Assembly: GCA_964349125.1 (NCBI GenBank)
Contig: CAYGFH010000001.1
Span: 708,801-772,800, forward strand
Direction: 5' to 3'
Length of the DNA stretch: 64,000 bases
Origin: an uncultured Gammaproteobacteria bacterium
GTDB lineage: Bacteria > Patescibacteriota > Microgenomatia > UBA10105 > UBA927
Shown: in pieces, positions 5,713 to 55,827 of the stretch
Layout of the letters: the number at the start of each line of letters is the position of its first letter
Position numbering within the stretch: the first letter of the stretch is position 1
Program-made: the position numbers and the translations under genes
The notes under the pieces: model-generated
What the model was told of the DNA's origin: nothing
Databases searched by the model: none
The model's input: the letters and a program-made list of their open reading frames with translations, nothing else

Positions 5713-6915
5713 TTGAGTATGAGAATATTATATATAGTTCCTGAGGAATTTAATGGGAAAAGGTGGGGAGGTGTAACTAGTTATACCGTGGAATACGCAG
5801 CCCGCTTGATACAGATTGGCCACGCCGTAACTATTCTTACACCAGGGAAACAGATGTCACAGCATACGTATCGCCGTATCACCATTGTTAGGATACCCCC
5901 AGATGCAACACGATTCAGAGAGCGAATAGTGCTTAAAATATTACAATATATCTCTCAATCTCTCTATTCGAGGATTGCCTGGTCATTTGCGGTAAGATCA
6001 TACGTAAATAACTCAAAGTTCGATATTGTTGAGTCTCCAGAGTGGGGATCAAGCACGCTTCTCTTAAGGAGCACGCCTCACACAAACGTTATCGTACGAA
6101 TGCACAGATCTTGGTTACAGTACAAACAAGATAATAAACTCCCGATTGTGCTTACTGACTATTTGATTAATATATTTGAGTGTCTGTGTATACTCAAGTC
6201 ATCTGCGGTAACCTCCCCCACTATATACATGCTCAAACAACATTCTCTATTGGTATATATGGTACAGCGTTTGGGAAAGAGAGTTCGTGTTATTCGAAAT
6301 GCAGTACCTCCGTATAAATCAATTGGCGGTCTTTGCACCGTCAAAGGAAAATATATTCTTACAGTAGGAAGGATAGAAATTGGTAAAGGGAGCGTTCTCT
6401 TAGCTGAGGCGTTTCTATCAATCGCTCATCGTATTCCACGGATATGTTTAGTGTATATAGGGGAAGATACAGAAATGTATATTGCTGGCAAACAGCAAAG
6501 CTGTGAATCATATATTCGTGGTTTATTTAAACTTCATAATCGAGTAGATCAGCTTGTAATCCTACCGAGAATGAAGCGTGAGAATCTGTATGGGTATTAT
6601 AAAAAATGTATGGTGTATGTCGCTCCTTCACGAGGGAACGAGAATCCATCAATGTCATTACTGGAAGCTATCTCAGCTGGCGCTTGTGTGGTGGCAAGCA
6701 CGGCTGGAGGAATTCCTGAAACAGTGGCTACTTTAAAAAATATTCAACTGGTTCCAGAAGACAACGTAGAAGCATTATCGAAATCTATATTGTCTGCGAC
6801 AGCAGTTAAGAAGAATACAAAAAGAACGCTATCGGAAAGCATATCATTTGATTCTCAAATTGAAAAAACTGAACGCTTGTATCTCGAGGTGCATCAACGC
6901 GCTCTTTCTCGATAG
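5713..6915 (+). CDS. glycosyltransferase family 4 (GT-B, retaining)
   Basis: C-terminal motif EAISAGACVVASTAGGIPETV and the N-terminal YIVPEEFNGKRWGGVTSY. Confidence 0.8.
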   Translation: MSMRILYIVPEEFNGKRWGGVTSYTVEYAARLIQIGHAVTILTPGKQMSQHTYRRITIVRIPPDATRFRERIVLKILQYISQSLYSRIAWSFAVRSYVNNSKFDIVESPEWGSSTLLLRSTPHTNVIVRMHRSWLQYKQDNKLPIVLTDYLINIFECLCILKSSAVTSPTIYMLKQHSLLVYMVQRLGKRVRVIRNAVPPYKSIGGLCTVKGKYILTVGRIEIGKGSVLLAEAFLSIAHRIPRICLVYIGEDTEMYIAGKQQSCESYIRGLFKLHNRVDQLVILPRMKRENLYGYYKKCMVYVAPSRGNENPSMSLLEAISAGACVVASTAGGIPETVATLKNIQLVPEDNVEALSKSILSATAVKKNTKRTLSESISFDSQIEKTERLYLEVHQRALSR

Positions 6916-6958
6916 TGATTCATGAGAGATATACTTGTACTATTTTCTACCACAGCTG

Positions 6959-7918
6959 TTAGCGAACGAGCGCGCAGCAGTAACTCCACAGTGTGTTGCA
7001 TTCTGGTAAATCCCAAAATTTATTTCCAGTCACACCAAACGAATGTATGATCCGAGCCCGTTTAGGTAACCCCCACCACATCCAATTACTCCCCCACTCT
7101 TTCTCAGCAAGACCGGAATACTGCAAGACTTTTTTAGCGAATGGATATGATCCAGAATATATGATAATGCCGTCATCTGATACCTGGCGTATGTCGCTGT
7201 ACTTTGCGAGGACATTATATTCATGCCCGATACGCTGGTGTGTAAAATCATAGTGTATATACTGAAAGTACGAATTGATGAGGCCTTGTTGTCCAGCCTG
7301 AATTTTTACTGTACTTCCATCCCTGTAATATTGAGATACCAGTTTTTTTGTCGTGATGAAATTAGATCGGCTTGAATAGCTATAGACTCCGGCATTTAAT
7401 AATGGGACTCCCTTTTCCTGAAGTAACTCAGGGATTGCGATGTATGGTTTATCGTCAATTATATTCCACCAATCATCAAGTGTATCCACAATCAATGCGT
7501 CGGCATCAAGATAAATATACTTGTGTATGCCTAGCACTCGAGTTCTATCCCAGAGTGCGAGTTGTAAATCTTGTGTAGGTAAGTGTATGCAGCCATTTCT
7601 TATCTTCCGTATCTCACTTGAGATGGGTAAGGTTTCAAAATAAATGTTTGTATATCGTCGTGCAAACGATCTAATAGATGATATATCATGCTGTGAGAAT
7701 ATTGTTATATTGGCATTCTCATGTTGTCGCTTCGCAAGAGCAATCCAAGACTTGCATAACACTAATGATTCCCGATCAGAATAATCCATCAACGTAACAA
7801 GGTGCATAGCTATGTATCCTGTTCCATACGAGTACCAATCAGTAGTCTTTGCTGTCAGCAACGCGAGCAATAATTCTATTGTGAATGCTGATTTCTTACA
7901 GATCTGTTTCGAAATCAC
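6959..7918 (-). CDS. glycosyltransferase family 8 (LPS glycosyltransferase/glycogenin-like)
   Basis: YIYLDADALIVDTLDDWWN (DXD) and NAGVYSY motifs typical of GT8. Confidence 0.75.
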   Translation of the reverse strand: MISKQICKKSAFTIELLLALLTAKTTDWYSYGTGYIAMHLVTLMDYSDRESLVLCKSWIALAKRQHENANITIFSQHDISSIRSFARRYTNIYFETLPISSEIRKIRNGCIHLPTQDLQLALWDRTRVLGIHKYIYLDADALIVDTLDDWWNIIDDKPYIAIPELLQEKGVPLLNAGVYSYSSRSNFITTKKLVSQYYRDGSTVKIQAGQQGLINSYFQYIHYDFTHQRIGHEYNVLAKYSDIRQVSDDGIIIYSGSYPFAKKVLQYSGLAEKEWGSNWMWWGLPKRARIIHSFGVTGNKFWDLPECNTLWSYCCALVR

Positions 7919-38583: not shown

Positions 38584-39624
38584 ATGTCCAATTGGAAGCG
38601 CCTCCACGATGATCCACACTTGTGGGAAAAATACTTTGTCCGTGAAAAAGTTATCAAATCGATTCGCGGTTATTTTGATGCCAATTCGTTCCATGAAATA
38701 GAAACGCCTATTCTGATTGCCAATCCTCCCGCTGAGTCATACGTGGATGTATTTGAAACGACAGTGCTTGATAGAAAACGCAGAAAGTACTCCGCATATT
38801 TATCGACATCCCCTGAGATGGCTCTCAAAAAATTGTTAGTGGCAGGAGTTGGTAACTGCTTTTCCATGACCAAAAGCTTTCGCAATACTGAAATGCAATC
38901 TACAAGACATAATCCCGAGTTTACGATTCTCGAATGGTATCGGGTTGATGTGGACTATACGGCGATTATGGATGACGTTGAACGTATCGTGTTTTCGATT
39001 CAACAGTCCGTGAGTGAAGATCCTGTGATGCATTACCAGGGACATGATATTCATTTAGGGCCACCTTGGGACAGATTAACCATGAAGGAAGCGTTCCTGA
39101 AATACACTAGTATCGATTTTGATGCGTTTCTGAATATGGATACAGCGAGAAAAGTGGCAGCAGAAAAAGGATATGCAGTTACCCCCCAAAACACGTGGGA
39201 AGAATTATATAATCAAATTTTTCTTAATGAAATCGAGCCTAAGCTTGGTTTCGGTAAGCCTGTGTTTCTGTATGAATTCCCATCCAGCATGGCTGCACTG
39301 TCAAAGAAGAAAGAATCAGACCCAAGATATGCCGAGCGGTTTGAATTCTATATCGCCGGACTTGAATTAGGCGACGCATACAGCGAGCTCACGGATTGGG
39401 CAGAGCAGGAGCGTCGTTTTAATGACGAGCTCAAGGAAATAGCCAGATTAGGAAAAACCAGCTATGAATATGATCGTGATTTTATTGAAGCGTTGAAAGT
39501 TGGATTGCCGCAGTGTGCCGGAATTGCAGTCGGAGTTGACCGCCTAGTTATGTTGTTTGCTGATGTTATCAACATAGCCGACACGCTGTTTTTCCCGGCA
39601 TCCGAAATGTTTAAAGTGGAGTAA
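38584..39624 (+). CDS. epmA: EF-P--(R)-beta-lysine ligase EpmA (GenX/PoxA, LysRS class II paralog)
   Basis: ALKKLLVAGVGNCFSMTKSFRNTEMQSTRHNPEFTILEWY and ERFEFYIAGLELGDAYSELTD...DFIEALKVGLPQCAGIAVGVDRLVM align motif-for-motif with E. coli EpmA. Confidence 0.85.
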   Translation: MSNWKRLHDDPHLWEKYFVREKVIKSIRGYFDANSFHEIETPILIANPPAESYVDVFETTVLDRKRRKYSAYLSTSPEMALKKLLVAGVGNCFSMTKSFRNTEMQSTRHNPEFTILEWYRVDVDYTAIMDDVERIVFSIQQSVSEDPVMHYQGHDIHLGPPWDRLTMKEAFLKYTSIDFDAFLNMDTARKVAAEKGYAVTPQNTWEELYNQIFLNEIEPKLGFGKPVFLYEFPSSMAALSKKKESDPRYAERFEFYIAGLELGDAYSELTDWAEQERRFNDELKEIARLGKTSYEYDRDFIEALKVGLPQCAGIAVGVDRLVMLFADVINIADTLFFPASEMFKVE

Positions 39625-39676
39625 GGTGTTTAAACAGAAGTAAACTTATACATCTGACTGATTCCACCGGTGCACT

Positions 39677-40384
39677 ATGGATATCACCACGCTCAACCAC
39701 ATACAGAATTTGATTCAAGCGTCTGAGCACGCTGTAGATATAATTGCGGTTACAAAAACTCGCCCATTCTCCTGTGTGAAAGACGCATACGATGCCGGGG
39801 TGCTCCATATAGGTGAAAACAGGGTAGAGGAGGCGGCTGTCAAAATACAAACAGCAAGTGAACTGGGAATACACGGGCTAGTGTGGCACATGATCGGGCA
39901 TGTGCAATCCCGAAAGGTCAAGCGAGTGGTGGAGTTGTTTGATTGCATTGATTCGGTGGATAGCGTCAGCGTTGCAACTGCGATATCGTTGCACGCAGGT
40001 AAGATTCATAAACACATCTCCATGTTACTTGAAGTAAATATTTCAGGAGAATCCACTAAACAAGGATTTGCGCTATATAACTGGGGACATGACCGTGCGG
40101 TGTTTGGAGCGTTTTTAGAAGATATCAAATACATGCTTGAGCTTCCAAATATCAGTATAGACGGGTTTATGATAATGCCTCCGTATGTCACAGACGCAAC
40201 AGAGAATGCGCCATACTTTCGATCCGTACGAGCTCTTGCCGCACGGATTCGAACGGAAATTCCGTCAGTCGGTGCTGTATTATCCATGGGAACAAGTTGT
40301 GATTACACCAGTGCCATAGTAGAGGGATCAACACAAATTCGACTAGGGGAAACTTTGTTTGGACAGCGAACCTCAACACCATAG
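39677..40384 (+). CDS. YggS-family PLP-binding homeostasis protein (alanine racemase N-terminal fold)
   Basis: IIAVTKTRPFSCVKDAYDAGVLHIGENRVEEA with the conserved Lys in VTKT. Confidence 0.85.
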   Translation: MDITTLNHIQNLIQASEHAVDIIAVTKTRPFSCVKDAYDAGVLHIGENRVEEAAVKIQTASELGIHGLVWHMIGHVQSRKVKRVVELFDCIDSVDSVSVATAISLHAGKIHKHISMLLEVNISGESTKQGFALYNWGHDRAVFGAFLEDIKYMLELPNISIDGFMIMPPYVTDATENAPYFRSVRALAARIRTEIPSVGAVLSMGTSCDYTSAIVEGSTQIRLGETLFGQRTSTP

Positions 40385-40478
40385 TGTAGGTGAAGTATGT
40401 GAGGCCGGGTTCTCTGCCCGCTAGATCTCACCCTGTCTCTTAAATCCCCAATGACTAGTCTTACCGTTTGGTATTTGA

Positions 40479-40507
40479 TTGAAATCAGACGGAATTAACG
40501 ATATAAT
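40479..40507 (+). promoter_or_regulatory. sigma70-like promoter TTGAAA-17-TATAAT upstream of efp
   Basis: Read directly, about 35 nt upstream of the efp ATG. Confidence 0.4.
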
Positions 40508-40541
40508 ATCAGCCATACAGAGGTAGAAAACTTAAACAACT

Positions 40542-41105
40542 ATGGCAAATATAACAACAGCAGACTTCACAAAAGGCATGTTTATAGAATTCAAGGATGA
40601 GCCGCATCAGATTACGGATCTCACATTTGTGAATCCGGGAAAAGGATCTGCCTTCGTACGCACACGGCTAAAGTCGCTTAAGTCGGGTAAGGTGCAGGAA
40701 TTTACGTTCAAATCAGGTGAATCAGCTGTCGAAGTTCCTGTCGCAACTCAGGAAATGCAGTACCTTTATAAAGAAAATGAAAAGTATATATTTATGGATA
40801 ACACATCATATGAGCAATTCGGCATTTCGGAAGACATGCTTGGTAATTATATAAATTACTTAAAGCCAAACGACACGTATCAAATACTGGTAAACGGTGA
40901 TGAGGCAGTTGGCCTGAGATTCCCCAAAAAAGTTCGCCTCATGGTAACGGAAGCTGATGACGGGGCAAAGGGAAATACTGTTGGTGGAGCAACTAAAACT
41001 GTTATTATCGAGACCGGCGCGGTAGTAACGGTCCCAATGTTCATAAAGCAGGGTGAAATTATCGCAATAGATCCTGAAACAGGTGCATATCTCGAGCGAG
41101 GGTAA
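40542..41105 (+). CDS. efp: elongation factor P
   Basis: FVNPGKGSAFVRTRLKSLKSGK retains the modifiable Lys equivalent to E. coli K34. Three-domain length (187 aa). Confidence 0.9.
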   Translation: MANITTADFTKGMFIEFKDEPHQITDLTFVNPGKGSAFVRTRLKSLKSGKVQEFTFKSGESAVEVPVATQEMQYLYKENEKYIFMDNTSYEQFGISEDMLGNYINYLKPNDTYQILVNGDEAVGLRFPKKVRLMVTEADDGAKGNTVGGATKTVIIETGAVVTVPMFIKQGEIIAIDPETGAYLERG

Positions 41106-47127: not shown

Positions 47128-47202
47128 TGGTGCCAGCGGCAGGAATCGGACCTGCTACCCATGCCTTATGAAGACACTGCTCTACCAATGAGCTACGCTG
47201 GC
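47128..47202 (-). tRNA. tRNA with CAT anticodon (elongator Met or Ile2/lysidine type; not initiator-like)
   Basis: Minus-strand fold GCCAGCG-TA-GCTC/ATTGGTA/GAGC-A-GTGTC/TTCATAA/GGCAT-GGGTA-GCAGG/TCCGATT/CCTGC-CGCTGGC-A-CCA. Stems score 7/7, 4/4 and 5/5, and the anticodon stem has 2 G-U pairs. CCA is encoded. Position 55 is C rather than U. Confidence 0.8.
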
Positions 47203-47252: not shown

Positions 47253-47274
47253 AGCCATGGTTAGAATCAGAATC

Positions 47275-47343
47275 GCGGGGTAGTGTAGAGTTGCACAGAA
47301 GGCTCATAATCTTCTAGACCGCGGCGCGACTCCCGGCCCCGCA
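47275..47343 (+). ncRNA. tRNA-like small RNA/degenerate tRNA with CAT anticodon loop (CTCATAA), non-canonical T-arm
   Basis: Acceptor-like helix GCGGGGT/GCCCCGC and anticodon-like hairpin AGAAGG-CTCATAA-TCTTCT. The 3' region GACCGCGGCGCGACTCCCGGCCCCGC resembles a tRNA T-arm/acceptor but does not pair canonically. Flanked by a promoter and an intrinsic terminator. Confidence 0.3.
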
Positions 47344-47355
47344 ACAAGCGAAAAA

Positions 47356-47379
47356 AGCAGCCACCAGGCTGCTTTTTTA
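47356..47379. terminator. rho-independent terminator, bidirectional (AGCAGCC-acca-GGCUGCU + U6; A5 on the other side)
   Basis: Perfect 7-bp GC-rich stem with a 4-nt loop and a T-tract. Read directly. Confidence 0.6.
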
Positions 47380-47396
47380 TTGGATAAAGAACCGTA

Positions 47397-47430
47397 TTGA
47401 CATTGTACTACTATACTAGTACAATAGTAC
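47397..47430 (+). promoter_or_regulatory. trpR-like gene promoter (TTGACA-17-TACAAT) overlapped by an 18-bp near-perfect palindrome GTACTACTATACTAGTAC plus a tandem TAGTAC repeat; candidate Trp-repressor operator
   Basis: The palindrome (47405-47422) matches the E. coli trp operator core GTACTAGTTAACTAGTAC at 15/18 positions. A second TAGTAC lies 8 bp downstream. The -10 lies only about 8 nt before the ATG, implying a near-leaderless mRNA. Confidence 0.5.
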
Positions 47431-47433
47431 GAT

Positions 47434-47685
47434 ATGAATCCAGAGTGGCTAGACGAGGTATCAGCAGTATTGGTTAGGATATATGATAAAGCAGAAATGA
47501 CTGAATTTTTAAGAGGCCTGTTAACGGAAGGTGAACTGGAGGAGATAACCAGACGCGTGCAAATAGTGAAAAAATTAAAATCAGGAATATCTCAGCATAC
47601 AATTGCACGTGAGCTTGGTGTCGGTGTGGCAACAGTGACCCGGGGATCAAAAGAGATACAAAAAGGAAGGTTCAGACAAGTATAG
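47434..47685 (+). CDS. TrpR-like (YerC/YecD family) DNA-binding protein
   Basis: 83 aa. SGISQHTIARELGVGVATVTRGSKEIQKG is the Trp-repressor-family HTH. Confidence 0.75.
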   Translation: MNPEWLDEVSAVLVRIYDKAEMTEFLRGLLTEGELEEITRRVQIVKKLKSGISQHTIARELGVGVATVTRGSKEIQKGRFRQV

Positions 47686-47813
47686 TAGCGTGATTATTAA
47701 ATGCATTCGTATGAGTACATATAGCAACGTGGTACAAACTTGGTGGCAGAACTCTCAACAACTGGAGAGTGCTGTGCTGTTGGATTAACACGTATACCGT
47801 ACCGATTGCATAC

Positions 47814-47837
47814 ACCTCCAGAAATGGAGGTTTTTTT
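47814..47837 (+). terminator. intrinsic terminator/possible attenuator hairpin (ACCUCCA-gaaa-UGGAGGU + U7) between the trpR-like gene and trpB2
   Basis: Read directly. Lies 129 nt after the trpR-like stop and 94 nt before the trpB2 start. Confidence 0.55.
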
Positions 47838-47930
47838 GTTGTGTTAGTTAGCAAGCCGATTCAGAGAGGCGAGTGTACTAACCAACAATCCCACAATGCG
47901 GGATGTGGAAACATTTATGAAAGGAATACT

Positions 47931-49235
47931 ATGAACACAAAACAGTCAACACAGGTCTCAGACATGCCAAAGGCATATTTGAATATCGCCTACTATCTCA
48001 ATCGATATTTGGGCGAACTGCCCCCGCCTCCGGTTGATCCGACGGGTACACCAATTGGCCCAGACGCGCTTGCGCCGTTATTTGCGATGGAGTTAATCAA
48101 GCAGGAGGTTTCTCTGGAAAAAGATATTCCGATACCAGAACCAGTACTTGAGGCATACAGACAGTATAGGATGACCCCTCTTATACGAGTGAGAAGATTG
48201 GAACGGTATCTTGACACACCAGCCCATATCTATGTGAAGTATGAGGGAGTGTCACCTGTGGGAAGTCACAAATTTAATACTGCACTACCACAGGCATATT
48301 ACAACAAGATGGAAGGAGTAAAAGGGCTTGCTACCGAAACCGGAGCAGGTCAGTGGGGGAGCGCACTCTCTTTGGCATGCCGCATGATGGATTTGCCCTG
48401 TCAGGTGTTTATGGTCAAAAGTTCCTTTGATCAGAAACCATACAGAAAAACGATAATGGAACTATACGGAGGCTCTGTTGTGGCAAGCCCCTCGACACTG
48501 ACAGAAGCAGGTAGGGGATTTTTGGAATCGGAGGCCAACAGAACGGGTAGTCTGGGGATGGCAATATCCGAAGCTATCGAATTTGCCGTCAAGAACGGGT
48601 ATCACTATGCCCTCGGTAGCGTCTTGAATCATGTCTTGCTGCATCAAACAATCATTGGATTGGAAGCAAAAACGCAGATGGAAAAACAAGATACCTACCC
48701 GGATATCGTCATCGGTTGTTGTGGGGGAGGGAGTAATCTCGCAGGTCTTAGCTTTCCATTTCTGGCCGACAAGCTTTCCGGTAAGACAAAACACCTGCGT
48801 GTTATTGCTGTAGAGCCCATAGCGTGTCCTTCATTGACTCGTGGTGAATACCGCTATGACAGTGGGGATACGGCCGGCATGACTCCCAGAATGATGATGT
48901 ATACGATGGGTAGTGATTTTGTGCCGAACGCCATACACGCGGGAGGGCTGCGGTATCACGGAGACGCACCCCTTATTAGCTTTATGTACCATAAAAAACT
49001 CATTGAGGCAGTTTCATATGGGCAATTGGATGTATTTGAATCCGCCGCATTGTTTGCCAGATGCGAAGGGATCATACCTGCTCCGGAATCCGCACATGCG
49101 ATACAACATGCGATTGTCGAAGCCATTCGTGCAAAAGAAGAGGGAAAGAAGAAAGTAATACTCGTCAATCTCTCTGGCCACGGCCTGTTGGATCTGGGAG
49201 CGTATGACGAGTATTTGAGGGGAAGCATGGCATAA
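47931..49235 (+). CDS. trpB: tryptophan synthase beta chain, stand-alone TrpB2 type
   Basis: The PLP-Lys region YEGVSPVGSHKFNTALPQAYY, GCCGGGSNLAG, and a length of about 434 aa with an N-terminal extension are typical of TrpB2. The start is at ATG(47931), 5 nt after a GAAAGGA SD. The ORF track begins at an upstream in-frame Met. Confidence 0.9.
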   Translation: MNTKQSTQVSDMPKAYLNIAYYLNRYLGELPPPPVDPTGTPIGPDALAPLFAMELIKQEVSLEKDIPIPEPVLEAYRQYRMTPLIRVRRLERYLDTPAHIYVKYEGVSPVGSHKFNTALPQAYYNKMEGVKGLATETGAGQWGSALSLACRMMDLPCQVFMVKSSFDQKPYRKTIMELYGGSVVASPSTLTEAGRGFLESEANRTGSLGMAISEAIEFAVKNGYHYALGSVLNHVLLHQTIIGLEAKTQMEKQDTYPDIVIGCCGGGSNLAGLSFPFLADKLSGKTKHLRVIAVEPIACPSLTRGEYRYDSGDTAGMTPRMMMYTMGSDFVPNAIHAGGLRYHGDAPLISFMYHKKLIEAVSYGQLDVFESAALFARCEGIIPAPESAHAIQHAIVEAIRAKEEGKKKVILVNLSGHGLLDLGAYDEYLRGSMA

Positions 49236-49354
49236 GATCACTCGCACATTTACACAAAGGAAGTCTGGCATTTCCTCGCTACCGAGTTCCCCTAGTCACG
49301 GGTATTTGGTAGTGGGGAAATGAATGTGAAAACTATAGTTCAAGGAGTATTGAC

Positions 49355-49681
49355 ATGGTTCGAAGAGTACTAAGCTTTGGTATTGTACTGGTAAGTGGCG
49401 TGATCGTCGGTATTGGCTTGATAGCAGAGTGGCATGCACGGGTTATTTTGCCGCTATCAATCGTGTGCGTAGGTGCTTTGCTCGTGGCATGTATTCCGGC
49501 ACGCCCTGCCAAGAAGATATGTCTGCGGTGCGGAGGATCGGGATATGTTCCGGTTGTAGGCGCATGGGCGACTGAGTACGATGCGGATACTTGTCCACGG
49601 TGTGGAGGTTCCGGTCGCCTGCTGCAGCAGTCCAGTCCACTTGAAGAGGATGGGTACTGTATGACTGATACAGACATCTAG
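49355..49681 (+). CDS. small 2-TM membrane protein with DnaJ-type CxxCxGxG zinc-finger pair
   Basis: Two hydrophobic helices, then CLRCGGSGY...CPRCGGSGR. The opposite-strand ORFs here are composition shadows in a GC-richer patch. Confidence 0.5.
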   Translation: MVRRVLSFGIVLVSGVIVGIGLIAEWHARVILPLSIVCVGALLVACIPARPAKKICLRCGGSGYVPVVGAWATEYDADTCPRCGGSGRLLQQSSPLEEDGYCMTDTDI

Positions 49682-49890
49682 TCTTTCCTCAATAGTTCGC
49701 ATTCGCATCTCTGCGACAGTCTTCTTACAAAAGAAGCATTCCGTACGGAAATAGTTGTCTCCTGATGTTTTTATGATAAAAATCGTACACACGACGCGTG
49801 TACACATTTTAGCAGTAATTACATCAGGGGGCACGTTTCTAAGACACATAGTTGGTTATAAATATAAATTCATTTACAATAAGGAGACCT

Positions 49891-51753
49891 ATGAATCTAA
49901 AAGATACGATTGAAAAAATTTTGACTGAAAAGAACGTTGAATACCGGTTTATTCCGCTTCCTGCGGAATTACCCGCAGATGTCCCATCCCACGCTGCGTT
50001 TCACGGTATTTCGCTTGCGAATGCAATGACAACCATGCTCTATCGGACAGAAAAAGGCATTATCGCCGCAGTGAAACGGGCGGATACTCAGGTTGATCAA
50101 GAAGCGTTAAAGGCGATTGCGGGTGTGTCGACCCTGACATTTGCATCAAAAGAAGACCTGAAAGCAATAGGGACTGAGGTTGGGCTGGTACCATTTCTTG
50201 GACTGAACATCCCATTTTACATCGATGACAACGTGATGGGTGTAGGTAAAATTTACGGAACAAGTGGGGATGCATTGATGGGTATGTCTATGAATGCGAC
50301 AGATCTCCCGCTGGTAAACGCAGGCAAAGTTTCGAACTTTGCGCGACTAGAACAGCTTGCGAGCGTTCCGATGGGAAAGCGTTTTTTATCTGGCATAACT
50401 CCCAGCGGTGACGGATCACTTCACATAGGGAATTACCTGGGCGCAGTGAAACAGTTTATTGAGCTATCAAAACAGAATGAAACATTCCTGATGGTAGCCG
50501 ATCTCCACGGGCTAACGACCATACAGGACAAAAAACACCTGACTCGGAACATAGAGACACTAGTGCTTGAAGAGTTATCCCTGCTTCTTGGATTTTTGGG
50601 CGAGGAGAAATTTAATTCCATTACGTTCTTCAGACAATCTGATGTGACCATGCATACCGAGTTACAGTCGATACTAAACAATGTAACGCCCCTTGGTTTA
50701 CTGAAACGTGCGCATGCGTATAAAGATAAACTCGCGAAAGATGTGATGGAAGACGATGTGAACTTAGGTCTATTTAATTATCCGATCCTCATGGCGTCTG
50801 ACATTTTGTTGTATAAACCTGATCTTGTCCCTGTAGGAAAAGATCAGAAACAACATATTGAAATTACCAGAGATGTGGCGGACCGGTTTAATCGGATTTA
50901 TAAGAAAAATGTGTTGAAATTGCCAGACCCGTTTATTCCCGAAGCTGTCTCAGTTGTATTAGGAACTGACGGAAAGCGAAAAATGAGTAAGTCCCTGGGT
51001 AATCTGATCAGCATATTTGACGAGGAATCAGTCATAAAGAAACAGGTATACGGTGCCTATACTGATCCGACCCGCGTGCACGCTACGGATAAGGGTCATA
51101 TAGAAGGAAACATGGTGTTTTCCTATTTACACTATTTCGGGGAAACCAGCCGTGTTGAAGAGCTCAAAGTTCAGTACAAAGAGGGAGCCGTGTCAGATGT
51201 CGCAGTAAAAGAGTATCTTTTTGAATGTTTGAAGCGAACGTTTGCTCCAGCAAGGGAAGCTTACGTTCAGCTAAAGGCAAATCCAAAACGAGTGAAAGCT
51301 ATTTTGAAAATCGGGCAGGAAAAGGCGCTTTCAGTCGCAACGCAAACCCTGAAGGAGGTTCGTGATGCTATAGGTATCACGACGTCATATTCATTCTTTG
51401 AGTACCCGAAAGTGAGTGGAGGCGACACGGTATCCATCGATGACTTCGCGAAAATTCGGTTAACCGTTGGTCATGTTGTCAGCGCAACGCATAAGGAGGG
51501 GAGTGACAAGCTGATCCGTTTGGTTGTCGATGTCGGAGAGCCGGAAAAACGGATTATATTTACCGGGGTACGAACATTCGGGTATACGCATGAAGATTTT
51601 TCGGGTAAGCAGTTTTTCTTTATCACCAATCTGGCCCCGCGAAAAATGCTTGATGAGTATTCGGAGGGCATGATACTCGCAGTAGATGGAGCAGACGGTA
51701 GGCCACAATTTATTTCTGCTGACGGAATGCCGGTGGGCTCCCAAATTCGATAA
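49891..51753 (+). CDS. trpS: tryptophan--tRNA ligase with N-terminal YbaK/ProX-like deacylase domain and C-terminal Trbp111/EMAP-like tRNA-binding domain
   Basis: Catalytic core RFLSGITPSGDGSLHIGNYLGAV (TrpRS HIGH region), VPVGKDQKQHIEITRDVADRFN and RKMSKSLGN (KMSKS). N-terminal 150 aa: AMTTMLYRTEKGIIAAV...IGTEVGLVPFLG (YbaK GxxxGxxPxG-type). C-terminal about 110 aa: DFAKIRLTVGHVVSATHKEGSDKLIRLVVDVGE...GMILAV (Myf/Trbp111 OB fold). Start at ATG(49891), 5 nt after AAGGAG. The ORF track starts at 49852. Confidence 0.9.
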   Translation: MNLKDTIEKILTEKNVEYRFIPLPAELPADVPSHAAFHGISLANAMTTMLYRTEKGIIAAVKRADTQVDQEALKAIAGVSTLTFASKEDLKAIGTEVGLVPFLGLNIPFYIDDNVMGVGKIYGTSGDALMGMSMNATDLPLVNAGKVSNFARLEQLASVPMGKRFLSGITPSGDGSLHIGNYLGAVKQFIELSKQNETFLMVADLHGLTTIQDKKHLTRNIETLVLEELSLLLGFLGEEKFNSITFFRQSDVTMHTELQSILNNVTPLGLLKRAHAYKDKLAKDVMEDDVNLGLFNYPILMASDILLYKPDLVPVGKDQKQHIEITRDVADRFNRIYKKNVLKLPDPFIPEAVSVVLGTDGKRKMSKSLGNLISIFDEESVIKKQVYGAYTDPTRVHATDKGHIEGNMVFSYLHYFGETSRVEELKVQYKEGAVSDVAVKEYLFECLKRTFAPAREAYVQLKANPKRVKAILKIGQEKALSVATQTLKEVRDAIGITTSYSFFEYPKVSGGDTVSIDDFAKIRLTVGHVVSATHKEGSDKLIRLVVDVGEPEKRIIFTGVRTFGYTHEDFSGKQFFFITNLAPRKMLDEYSEGMILAVDGADGRPQFISADGMPVGSQIR

Positions 51754-54906: not shown

Positions 54907-55827
54907 ATGATCATGAATTGGCTTCCCTATGCATTAACAGCAGCACTTAGTTTTGCTGCCGTAAATCATATCGATAAATACTTGTTGTCAAAATATTTTA
55001 AGGGACGGACAACCGGTGCGTTGTTATTATTCTCAGCGTGTATCGGTATACCAGTCAGTGTGTTGATTGCTATACTCTCGCCTCAAGTATTTGATTTGTC
55101 ACTAGGTAGCAAAATTATTCTGGTTTTTAATGGGGCGTTTTATCTGCTTGGACTTTTGCCATACTTTTATGCGTTGGATAAAGACGAAACATCCATAGTC
55201 GCCCCTCTATTTCAAATGGTGTCGGTGTTCAGTGCTCTTTTAGGTGTCATATTCTTGGGTGAGAGGTTATACCTGATGCAGTGGCTTGGCTGTGTGTTGA
55301 TTTTCTTGGGAGGGGTTGCGCTCTCAATGGAAACCTCCCAGTATACAAAAATTCGCATTAAATATGATGTCTTGCGGCTTATGGTATTTGCCTCATTTAT
55401 TATGGCGTTTAACGGGTTTATTTTTAAGTTAGTCGCTGTGCAGACAAAGTTTTGGACCGCCATGTTCTGGGAGTATACAGGGTATATTTTATTTGCTTCA
55501 TTAGTCTATATTTTTATCCAACCATTTAGAGAGGAATTTCTTACAGTGCTCAGGCAAAATAATCTGAAGATCCTTGGAGTGAACGGAGTAAATGAAGTAT
55601 TAGCTATCGTAGGAAAATCATTGCAGCACTTTGCAACTATGTTAACGCCACTGGCGATCGCGTTTGTTGTCCACGAAGGCGCCCAGCCATTTTTTGTTCT
55701 GCTGATAGGAATTTTTCTTACTGTTTTTTTCCCAAAAATCAGCCAGGAAGATATATCAAAAAAGGTTATTATTCATAAATTTGTCGCCGTCGGTGTGATG
55801 GTGTTTGGTGTGCTTCTACTATCCTAA
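54907..55827 (+). CDS. EamA/DMT-superfamily transporter
   Basis: 10-TM architecture with duplicated EamA halves. Confidence 0.75.
   Translation: MIMNWLPYALTAALSFAAVNHIDKYLLSKYFKGRTTGALLLFSACIGIPVSVLIAILSPQVFDLSLGSKIILVFNGAFYLLGLLPYFYALDKDETSIVAPLFQMVSVFSALLGVIFLGERLYLMQWLGCVLIFLGGVALSMETSQYTKIRIKYDVLRLMVFASFIMAFNGFIFKLVAVQTKFWTAMFWEYTGYILFASLVYIFIQPFREEFLTVLRQNNLKILGVNGVNEVLAIVGKSLQHFATMLTPLAIAFVVHEGAQPFFVLLIGIFLTVFFPKISQEDISKKVIIHKFVAVGVMVFGVLLLS

Follow-up and report, generated by a model that had tools for sequence, protein, structure and literature searches.

In a 64,000-nucleotide stretch of contig CAYGFH010000001.1 (hereafter the window, whose numbering is used throughout), we identified a compact group of tryptophan-related genes. 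We interpret region 47397-51753 as a single tryptophan-responsive operon of a Microgenomates (Gottesmanbacteria-like) bacterium of the Candidate Phyla Radiation (CPR), organized promoter/operator-trpR-trpL-attenuator-trpB2-znf-trpS, and assign this interpretation a probability of about 0.75. Its sequence suggests, with equally good confidence, that two layers of control act on the operon as in the Escherichia coli trp operon – repression by TrpR and attenuation through a leader peptide. The original prediction for this DNA had listed five elements here (a TrpR-like regulator, a hairpin, a TrpB2, a zinc-finger open reading frame (ORF) and an unusual tryptophanyl-tRNA synthetase (TrpRS)), and all five are present among the following features:

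47397..47425, plus strand: operon promoter, with -35 element TTGACA (47397-47402), a 17-nt spacer and -10 element TACAAT (47420-47425)
47406..47429, no strand assigned: predicted TrpR operator, three tandem 8-bp repeats (TACTACTA, TACTAGTA and CAATAGTA)
47434..47685, plus strand: trpR-like repressor gene, the first gene of the operon (83 amino acids; Pfam Trp_repressor, 60.5 bits)
47711..47788, plus strand: trpL, a leader peptide ORF of 25 codons, MSTYSNVVQTWWQNSQQLESAVLLD and a stop codon, with tandem Trp codons at 47741-47746
47751..47770, plus strand: anti-antiterminator (1:2) hairpin, ACTCTC (47751-47756) paired with GAGAGT (47765-47770), read from the sequence
47762..47821, plus strand: antiterminator (2:3), 47762-47783 paired with 47802-47821, taking up the 5' arm of the terminator
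47814..47837, plus strand: intrinsic terminator (3:4), ACCTCCA-GAAA-TGGAGGT followed by a U-tract
47931..49235, plus strand: trpB2, a stand-alone TrpB-like pyridoxal phosphate enzyme (434 amino acids; TIGR01415 and NF009057)
49355..49681, plus strand: znf, a small membrane protein (108 amino acids) with two transmembrane segments and two CxxCGGSG motifs; Shine-Dalgarno sequence AAGGAG 8 nt upstream
49891..50370, plus strand: N-terminal YbaK/ProX-fold domain of TrpRS, approximately residues 1-160 (Pfam tRNA_edit)
50380..51390, plus strand: catalytic core of TrpRS, with HIGN and KMSKS motifs read in the translation
51460..51753, plus strand: C-terminal Trbp111/EMAPII-type tRNA-binding domain of TrpRS (Pfam tRNA_bind, 56 bits)

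The best-matching named relatives of the TrpRS and TrpR-like proteins are from Candidatus Gottesmanbacteria and Roizmanbacteria metagenome-assembled genomes. The gene neighbourhoods that we compared comprise the window plus +/-10 kb around looked-up genes in related loci (numbered with the prefix L), drawn from both metagenomes and genomes. The arrangement is not a product of chance, as the same layout is seen again at many independent loci.

A predicted leader-peptide attenuator precedes trpB2

As originally predicted, the 245-nt leader between trpR and trpB2 (47686-47930) contains a strong hairpin with a U7 tract, made up of a stem (47814-47820/47825-47831), a GAAA loop and a T-run reaching 47837. 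The accompanying suggestion that this hairpin is a conditional terminator is borne out by computed, mutually exclusive folds and by conservation, which place the element among leader-peptide attenuators – a type that the prediction had overlooked. The leader peptide ORF, trpL, has an alternative GTG start at 47690, 5 nt past the trpR stop codon.

The fold of 47758-47840 (-23.6 kcal/mol) lacks the terminator, and the antiterminator duplex of the window has an energy of -26.5 kcal/mol (z = -5.6 relative to dinucleotide shuffles). In masked folding, where the stalled state was represented by masking the RNA to 12 nt beyond the Trp codons, a ribosome stalled at these codons left 47762-47783 paired with 47802-47821, and a ribosome at the stop codon left the terminator. 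Across 19 loci, the terminator formed in every case (19/19) with the ribosome at the stop codon and was gone from the minimum free energy (MFE) structure in 11, the window included, with the ribosome on the Trp codons. A ribosome halted at the Trp codons would cover region 1 of the 1:2 hairpin. The 6-bp 1:2 helix is part of the MFE folds of two Gottesmanbacteria-clade loci (L119 and L004) but not of the full-length MFE fold of the window.

Homologous leaders are found in L119, L004, L128, L008 and L096-L117. The peptide reads MANIIINSQRWWQNLFREVLM in L004 and MNTAQQYVLNSWWQNSQRLGSAVPLD in L119 and ends in FTWWQSLLWEVLM in L128, each followed by a stop codon; elsewhere it carries ..NWWQ..YPRSGWRF (L008, L096, L097) or ..KNWWT..LW (L098, L099, L105, L106, L110, L111) before the stop, or ..NWWW.. 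(L112, L115, L117). An intrinsic terminator follows each of these leaders, and the terminator hairpin CCTCCAG-NAA-TGGAGG is kept in six Gottesmanbacteria-type loci. The leader start codon and the trpR stop share an ATGA in seven loci, which argues that the leader is translated and coupled to trpR.

The antiterminator was present in all 18 loci tested, each with z < 0 against dinucleotide shuffles (mean z -2.0; Fisher combined p of 1e-10 for all loci and 2.6e-6 for one locus per subfamily). Its 5' strand begins 21.3 +/- 1.7 nt past the first Trp codon, just clear of a stalled ribosome. With the 3' strand extended by 13 nt, the six Gottesmanbacteria-type leaders gave z values of -5.6 (window), -4.9, -3.2, -4.7, -2.2 and -5.0. 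These per-sequence duplex energies replaced column-wise covariation counting on a MAFFT alignment of the six leaders, which we dropped because a bulge shifts the pairing register between subfamilies. The antiterminator pairing is maintained through sequence change: GUGCUGUGC pairs with GCAUACAC in the window/L119 class, but UUCUGAU with AUCAGA(C) in the L004/L128 class, and a U-A pair of L127 is a C-G pair of L129.

Together these elements would operate as follows. The Trp-bound TrpR-like repressor would sit on the tandem TACTAGTA repeats over the -10 element and the transcription start and shut off its own transcript. On transcripts that do start, a ribosome would translate the 25-codon leader. 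When Trp-tRNA is plentiful it would reach the stop codon at 47786, leaving region 2 either masked or bound to region 1. In that case the 47814-47831 hairpin and U-tract would form and transcription would stop short of trpB2. When Trp-tRNA is scarce, the ribosome would stall at W10-W11 (47741-47746) and cover region 1, after which region 2 could pair with 47802-47821, block the terminator and let RNA polymerase read through into trpB2 in vivo.

Several points weigh against this computational model. The leader ATG of the window has no clear Shine-Dalgarno sequence; the full-length MFE fold of the window, calculated with no ribosome, predicts the antiterminator instead of the 1:2 hairpin and terminator; and in 8 of the 19 loci the MFE fold retains the terminator despite a ribosome on the Trp codons. 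An Rfam search of 46.5-52.5 kb gave no match at E < 1 to Trp_leader (RF00513) or T-box (RF00230) and, with permissive filters, none to any non-tRNA family besides one chance-level match (E = 0.9) overlapping a tRNA gene. The leader would therefore function like TrpL yet stand outside the Trp_leader sequence family.

The hairpin and U7 tract might instead be a constitutive terminator of trpR, with trpB2 expressed from its own promoter in the next 93 nt and the WW ORF coincidental. The hairpin is indeed a canonical strong terminator, 129 nt past the trpR stop, and the Shine-Dalgarno sequence of the leader ATG is weak; moreover, a conserved 93-nt segment parts the terminator from trpB2 in the window and L119. 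However, we found no promoter-like site in 47838-47930, and in L004 the terminator directly adjoins the ribosome-binding site of trpB2 and thus leaves no space for a promoter. W-rich leaders with antiterminators at a fixed distance are kept in more than 20 loci, and in seven the leader is coupled to trpR by ATGA. We consequently regard a constitutive terminator as very unlikely and favor the attenuator. The 93-nt segment itself (47838-47930) is near-identical in L119 and absent altogether from L004. It holds two small hairpins, GTTAGT...ACTAAC and ATCCC...GGGAT; in L119 one stem pair changes from U-A to U.G and the loops differ.

We consider it scarcely credible that the leader is a T-box, or another tRNA- or protein-binding riboswitch, and not a ribosome-mediated attenuator. 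CPR relatives do have T-boxes: one lies upstream of TrpB2 on a Buchananbacteria contig (L009:5572-5776; 55 bits, E = 2.5e-9), a weak match follows trpR (L094:793-1004; 22 bits, E = 0.057) and others precede valyl-tRNA synthetase (ValRS) genes (L005:799-932(-), L006:565-720(-) and L121:1417-1551(-)). The same Rfam model that detects these T-boxes gives none in 46.5-52.5 kb of the window, however, and the WW ORF and ribosome-footprint geometry account for the structures of the attenuator. The ValRS gene of the window lies ~45 nt after XerC and has no T-box.

A TrpR-like repressor and its predicted operator

The presence of a TrpR-family regulator, as originally proposed, is supported by family scores and by the predicted operator. 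The protein scores 60.5 bits against Pfam Trp_repressor PF01371 (cut-off 27) and matches E. coli TrpR structures at E = 2e-7; with TIGR01321 it reaches 50.6 bits, under the cut-off of 67.25, and with the YerC/YecD model a lower 30.4 bits. In an alignment to E. coli TrpR, with E. coli residue numbering, T44, R54, R84 and G85 are kept as T31, R41, R70 and G71, and R69 and K72 are not kept (H55 and A58 in the window protein). The recognition helix GxATxTRGS is retained (GVATVTRGS in the window, GIATITRGS in E. coli). Public annotations already name such proteins Trp repressors. The window protein is predicted to bind DNA in a Trp-dependent manner.

The promoter at 47397-47425 is the top promoter-like site in 46.5-52.5 kb, with 11 of 12 positions matched. 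Its -10 element ends 8 nt from the trpR ATG (6-11 nt across related loci), so near that the trpR mRNA is probably leaderless. The operator repeats overlap the spacer, the -10 element and the transcription start, with a CTAG-type centre every 8 bp. The E. coli trp operator is GTACTAGTTAACTAGTAC, with a CTAG spacing of 8 bp, and by this comparison the predicted operator of the window is essentially the same. The exact TACTAGTA repeat occurs once in the 64-kb window, with a 1-mismatch copy directly beside it.

A similar layout, CTTGACA-N11-12-operator/-10, is found upstream of trpR-like genes in related loci. ACTAGT lies at most 26 nt from the start codon in 26 of 35 of them, and the operator consensus is (A/G)TACTAGTAT(A/C)(A/C)TAGTA(C/T), usually 11-12 nt past CTTGACA and therefore including the -10 element. 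Because trpR is upstream of the attenuator, it would be autoregulated and not attenuated, with the genes downstream under both controls.

No further TrpR operator was found in the window, for example at trpS or at an EamA transporter gene. This EamA/DMT-family gene (54907-55827, 3 kb downstream of trpS) belongs to a family that includes aromatic amino-acid exporters; with no TrpR operator nearby, there is no evidence linking it to the operon.

The trpR-trpL unit recurs ahead of different tryptophan genes

Units of trpR, a W-rich leader and a terminator recur in more than 20 related Microgenomates/Patescibacteria loci, where they stand before TrpB2, TrpB1, TrpRS or whole trpE-G-DC operons. The gene orders are:

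Window (Gottesmanbacteria clade): trpR-trpL-trpB2-znf-trpS
L004 (Gottesmanbacteria clade): trpR-trpL-trpB2-racemase-trpS
L119 (Gottesmanbacteria clade): (contig start)-trpL-trpB2-racemase-trpS
L128 (Gottesmanbacteria clade): trpR-trpL-trpB2-racemase-(contig end)
L120-L122 (Gottesmanbacteria clade): znf-(tRNA-Trp)-racemase-trpS
L005 and L006 (Gottesmanbacteria clade): (tRNA-Trp in L005)-SerK-like-trpB2-trpS
L127 and L129 (Gottesmanbacteria clade): trpR-trpL-two ORFs-(in L129, trpS without the edit domain)
L008, L096, L097, L100, L101, L106 and L111 (Roizmanbacteria-type, other): trpR-trpL-trpB2-(SerK-like and/or racemase)-trpS
L090 (Roizmanbacteria-type, other): trpR-trpB1-DUF3182-trpS
L109, L112 and L115 (Roizmanbacteria-type, other): trpR-trpL-trpE-trpG-trpDC...; in L113 and L114, trpE directly after trpR

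From these orders, trpR-trpL appears to be a portable Trp sensor placed ahead of whichever Trp-supply genes a lineage retains.

Several neighbors of these units recur as well. An Asp/Glu-type racemase gene (TIGR00035, above cut-off) shares 4 nt with the beginning of the tripartite trpS gene in five genomes of Gottesmanbacteria (L004:9303-10004, L119:1557-2261, L120:2896-3606, L121:5315-6004 and L122:5303-6004), and a racemase is also found after TrpB2 or the trpR-leader unit in L085, L094, L097, L099, L101, L106 and L128. In L121 and L122 a tRNA-Trp gene lies just upstream of the racemase; in L005 one precedes the module. No SerK-like gene, racemase or tRNA-Trp was found in the window. A search by tblastn and blastn for a decayed racemase gene under the zinc-finger region found nothing, and the trpB2-trpS gap of the window resembles the racemase region in length only (655 vs 702 nt), the sequences being unrelated. 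The DUF3182 protein of L090 (374 amino acids; 6523-7647) is encoded between the lone TrpB1 and trpS, downstream of trpR.

In loci with TrpB2 or trpS but without trpR, we observed another conserved short-ORF motif just upstream, R/S/K-(E/N)-Y-W-R (L005:5925-5940, L006:5928-5943, L007:207-222, L009:5869-5884 and L122:4322-4335; DNA (A/C)GG GAA TA(C/T) TGG CG(A/G)). The DNA varies in the manner of synonymous changes (AGG/CGG, TAC/TAT), suggesting that the peptide itself is conserved, and in L005 the stop of the short ORF overlaps the trpB2 ATG. On these sequence features, the short ORF may be a second, undescribed Trp-sensing leader.

The regulated unit probably extends to trpS

The layout of the locus suggests that trpS is probably under operon control, and no strong plus-strand terminator was found between trpB2 and trpS. 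Some features count against this extension. Gaps of 119 nt and 209 nt separate trpB2, znf and trpS; the 209-nt gap ahead of trpS contains a palindrome (49784-49806, inverted repeat CGTACACACGACGCGTGTACAC); and a weak promoter-like TTGGTT-17-TACAAT lies just upstream of trpS. Separate expression of trpS therefore has room, and an essential synthetase also needs basal expression. In addition, trpS stands without trpR or trpB2 in the close relatives L120-L122.

The same features favor an account in which trpS, perhaps with znf, lies outside the regulated unit. A trpR-trpL-trpB2 cassette would have been inserted at a variable position ahead of an ancestral znf-(tRNA-Trp)-racemase-trpS block, as L120-L122 still have it, and expression of trpS would depend mainly on signals of its own – the -35/-10-like pair among them. 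Against this account, however, stand the lack of a strong plus-strand terminator from trpB2 to trpS, the many other lineages in which trpS overlaps or comes straight after genes preceded by the trpR-leader unit, and L127 and L129, where the trpR-leader is followed by two ORFs and then trpS, with no trpB. We regard such an insertion as possible but doubtful, and prefer the reading in which znf and trpS would be co-transcribed with trpB2. The CGTACACACGACGCGTGTACAC repeat is flagged as terminator-like on the minus strand alone, where no gene ends; it may serve to bind a protein or act as a weak barrier separating znf from trpS.

As predicted, znf lies in a GC-richer patch (52.9%, compared with 41.6% for the window). 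It scores 21.5 bits against DnaJ_CXXCXGXG (PF00684), under the cut-off of 32.7. Its two CxxCGGSG motifs are invariant in four homologues. Homologues in L120, L121 and L122, 26-39% identical and with invariant C56, C59, C80 and C83 and GGSG motifs, are directly upstream of (tRNA-Trp)-racemase-trpS. We considered that znf might be a spurious ORF and rejected this given the conserved homologues with invariant Cys motifs and the good Shine-Dalgarno sequence.

The proposal that znf is a functional member of the tryptophan module is not supported. The whole family amounts to ~8 clusters among 5.8 billion proteins and belongs to one Gottesmanbacteria clade; all clusters traceable to a contig are on contigs of this clade that also bear trpS. 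Because genomes of the clade share the entire backbone ValRS-XerC-DivIC-tRNA-Met...trpS-FtsH, adjacency of znf and trpS is no independent evidence of a Trp function. Within the clade znf is a real gene beside trpS, but it is missing from every trpR/trpB2/trpS module outside the clade.

A stand-alone TrpB2 and indole salvage

Two curated profiles confirm that the lone TrpB is of the TrpB2 type: TIGR01415 (597.7 bits; cut-off 518.85) and NF009057 (659.4 bits; cut-off 366), with just 144.7 bits for the TrpB1 profile TIGR00263. The protein shares 57-71% identity with the TrpB2 of many phyla. In the proposed pathway, TrpB2 would make L-Trp from scavenged indole and serine or O-phosphoserine, and TrpRS, if co-transcribed, would charge tRNA-Trp.

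We surveyed the 64-kb window for other trp genes using a Pfam scan of ORFs of at least 110 amino acids outside 39.7-61.8 kb, the public gene table for 39.9-61.8 kb, and tblastn with TrpE, TrpG, TrpDC and TrpB1 queries taken from related loci. In agreement with the original prediction, no trpA, trpC, trpD, trpE, trpF or trpG was found. The flanks so covered, 47 kb upstream and 12 kb downstream of the operon, hold no trp gene.

Salvage of indole with serine, as first proposed, is largely upheld. The link between a lone TrpB (type 2 or type 1) and trpS recurs in other Patescibacteria, and this repeated, independent pairing supports an indole-to-Trp salvage that would feed charging. The regulatory unit itself is not specific to salvage, because it also precedes full trpE-G-DC operons in relatives.

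TrpB2 could alternatively be the final step of a complete de novo pathway encoded elsewhere in the genome. In relatives L109 and L112-L115 the trpR-leader unit is joined to trpE-G-DC, and in L105 TrpB2 sits with trpE/G/DC; it also weighs on this side, and against salvage, that our survey spans 64 kb of an 809-kb contig. Those lineages, however, group their trp genes with the regulator in one operon, whereas the operon of the window has only trpB2 and no trp gene lies within the surveyed flanks. To our knowledge, CPR bacteria generally lack amino-acid biosynthesis. Thermococcus also offers a precedent, a stand-alone TrpB2 that takes part in salvaging indole (Hiyama et al. 2014, as cited in PMC11085991). 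We therefore consider a complete pathway unlikely and salvage the better account.

In six related loci, ParB-like proteins of 132-133 amino acids adjoin TrpB2 (L005:5487-5888, L006:5486-5878, L008:4814-5212, L096:6793-7185, L097:3398-3784 and L100:6768-7163). They match SerK, the archaeal ADP-dependent serine kinase, at E ~1e-20 and SbnI, an O-phosphoserine synthase, at 1e-8 to 1e-10, in the N-terminal half only and under cut-offs. O-phosphoserine use by TrpB2 was reportedly described by Busch and colleagues in 2014, and these similarities suggest that the SerK/SbnI-like neighbors supply O-phosphoserine to TrpB2.

TrpRS carries a YbaK-like N-terminal domain

The true start of TrpRS is at 49891 (620 amino acids; Shine-Dalgarno sequence AAGGAG), in agreement with public gene calls. 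The suspicion that this synthetase is unusual proved correct: tRNA_edit, tRNA-synt_1b and tRNA_bind domains all score over their Pfam cut-offs, TIGR00233 gives 267.3 bits (cut-off 176.75), and the C-terminal region resembles the C-terminal domain of methionyl-tRNA synthetase (E = 6e-24). Among the 120 best TrpRS clusters, 62 have all three domains, 6 have edit domain and core, and 52 have core and tRNA_bind (68 with the YbaK-like domain), so the tripartite architecture is common in Microgenomates.

The N-terminal domain scores 48 bits with tRNA_edit (PF04073; cut-off 25.5). An AlphaFold model of it, based on 21 homologues (predicted local distance difference test score 91.7), gave Foldseek matches down to E = 5.6e-13 and template modelling scores of 0.8-0.88 to 2cx5, 2z0k, 2dxa, 1dbu and 1wdv; it superposes on ProX of Thermus thermophilus and E. 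coli, Haemophilus influenzae YbaK and APE2540. The Lys that serves the family in catalysis or tRNA positioning (xKTL; K46 of H. influenzae YbaK, K279 of E. coli prolyl-tRNA synthetase (ProRS)) aligns to T47 in the window, a column that holds T, V, A, S or P and never K in 21-68 homologues. T48, D65 and D112 never vary, and the Gly-rich substrate loop persists as lG...G.vP.

The original prediction had coupled the operon to quality control of tRNA charging. This part is unproven, since the domain has the YbaK/ProX fold without the conserved catalytic lysine of the family, and nothing found supports catalysis. A role in binding the acceptor end of the tRNA is as possible as a deacylase activity. 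A more far-reaching scenario, which we think improbable, would make the lysine-less domain an active cis-proofreading module and the protein the first editing TrpRS. It would clear tRNA-Trp bearing D-Trp or Trp analogues that a promiscuous TrpB2 makes from scavenged substituted indoles, and with the translationally coupled amino-acid racemase, SerK-like kinase, TrpB2 and tRNA-Trp would form a "make, racemise, charge and proofread" island under TrpR and trpL. A tie between the YbaK-like domain and an adjacent racemase or TrpB2 was sought across loci, with no consistent pattern.

Relation to characterized systems

In organization the operon is closest to Chlamydia trachomatis trpRBA, and in mechanism it follows the E. 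coli TrpR and TrpL scheme. Shared with E. coli are the dual logic, a repressor family with conserved Trp-pocket residues and recognition helix, a near-identical operator with CTAG-centred repeats 8 bp apart over the promoter, and an attenuator with tandem Trp codons, 1:2 / 2:3 / 3:4 architecture and a spacing of ~21 nt between the Trp codons and region 2. Unlike in E. coli, trpR leads the operon, ahead of the attenuator, and so would be autoregulated but unattenuated; the leader ORF is translationally coupled to trpR in seven relatives; the mRNA of the window is probably leaderless; and control would fall on a lone trpB2 and probably on trpS in place of trpEDCBA. The leader RNA also differs in having no sequence homology to Rfam Trp_leader, and the repressor in its sub-threshold TIGR01321 score.

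The order of trpR, an intergenic regulatory region and trpB is the same in C. trachomatis – a host-dependent bacterium with a reduced genome that obtains Trp from exogenous indole, and in which TrpR acts at the promoter upstream of trpR (PMC7755916). Its annotated TrpL is long, has no consecutive Trp codons and is deemed a poor attenuator, attenuation being exerted in trans by YtgR (PMC7755916). In contrast to this degenerate and replaced element, the cis attenuator of the window is canonical and conserved. The enzymes differ too, with TrpB1 and TrpA in Chlamydia and TrpB2 alone, linked to trpS, in the window.

Other stand-alone TrpB2 proteins (TIGR01415; Thermotoga, Sulfolobus, Thermococcus kodakarensis) belong to the same family and likewise have no TrpA partner nearby. 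The TrpB2 described here differs from them as the only trp enzyme gene seen in the window, under predicted TrpR and attenuator control and beside trpS, and in the short SerK/SbnI-like protein with which sister loci pair it.

With the YbaK, ProX and ProRS-INS deacylases, the N-terminal domain of TrpRS shares the fold, a tRNA_edit score above cut-off and the Gly-rich substrate loop, whereas its fusion to the TrpRS N-terminus and the replacement of the conserved Lys by a variable residue set it apart. Plasmodium falciparum TrpRS has an N-terminal AlaX-like domain related to a free-standing trans-editing factor (PMC3240968). It differs from the window protein in its AlaX and not YbaK/ProX fold, in being a eukaryotic-type TrpRS and in having no C-terminal tRNA_bind. 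This AlaX-like fusion was the sole TrpRS with an editing-type appendage, and no YbaK-TrpRS fusion was reported, in the literature that we searched.

The locus is a variant of known regulatory kinds in an unexpected lineage, together with an apparently undescribed TrpRS architecture. CPR bacteria, or Patescibacteria, are usually portrayed as metabolically minimal, and their gene regulation is little known. The literature searched yielded no paper that deals with attenuation or with the function of TrpR in Patescibacteria, or with TrpB2 in CPR. Against this background the locus would represent a complete two-tier tryptophan sensor of the E. coli style, with an almost identical operator and a leader-peptide attenuator. 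Attenuation needs tight coupling of transcription and translation, so that its conservation in many CPR loci speaks indirectly for such coupling there. The genes under control – a lone TrpB2, sometimes with a serine-kinase-like partner, often with TrpRS – point to indole as a resource from hosts or neighbors, an ecology that parallels genital Chlamydia. The TrpRS of YbaK fold, core and Trbp111 domain, widespread in Microgenomates and apparently undescribed in the literature searched, raises the question of proofreading versus tRNA handling for a synthetase thought to need no editing.

Other features of the window and related contigs

Two tRNA-like features lie upstream of the operon, at 47274-47344 (plus strand) and 47128-47202 (minus strand). 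A second tRNA-like gene, whose anticodon is CAU, reaches 36.5 bits in Rfam, but ARAGORN did not call it in the window. It shows a C1xA72 mismatch and an unusual D-arm, and a hairpin terminator follows at ~47350-47380. Its counterparts in relatives, of 70-73 nt, are called tRNA-Met, and the public contigs of L124-L126 begin inside the gene. L125 was considered as a strain variant with a differing gene call and rejected, its DNA being identical to the window.

Further upstream, 38584-41105 encodes a truncated class II aminoacyl-tRNA synthetase-like protein (346 amino acids, tRNA-synt_2 only) near a YggS-like Ala_racemase_N protein and elongation factor P (EF-P). This group resembles an EpmA/PoxA-type pair for modifying EF-P, here in a CPR genome.

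Two of the related contigs, L007 and L008 (CAYRFA010000117.1 and CAYNFC010000005.1), are labelled "uncultured Gammaproteobacteria". They are low in GC and carry a CPR-style module of trpR, WW leader, TrpB2, SerK-like protein and TrpRS with a YbaK domain, and are probably mis-binned or mislabelled.

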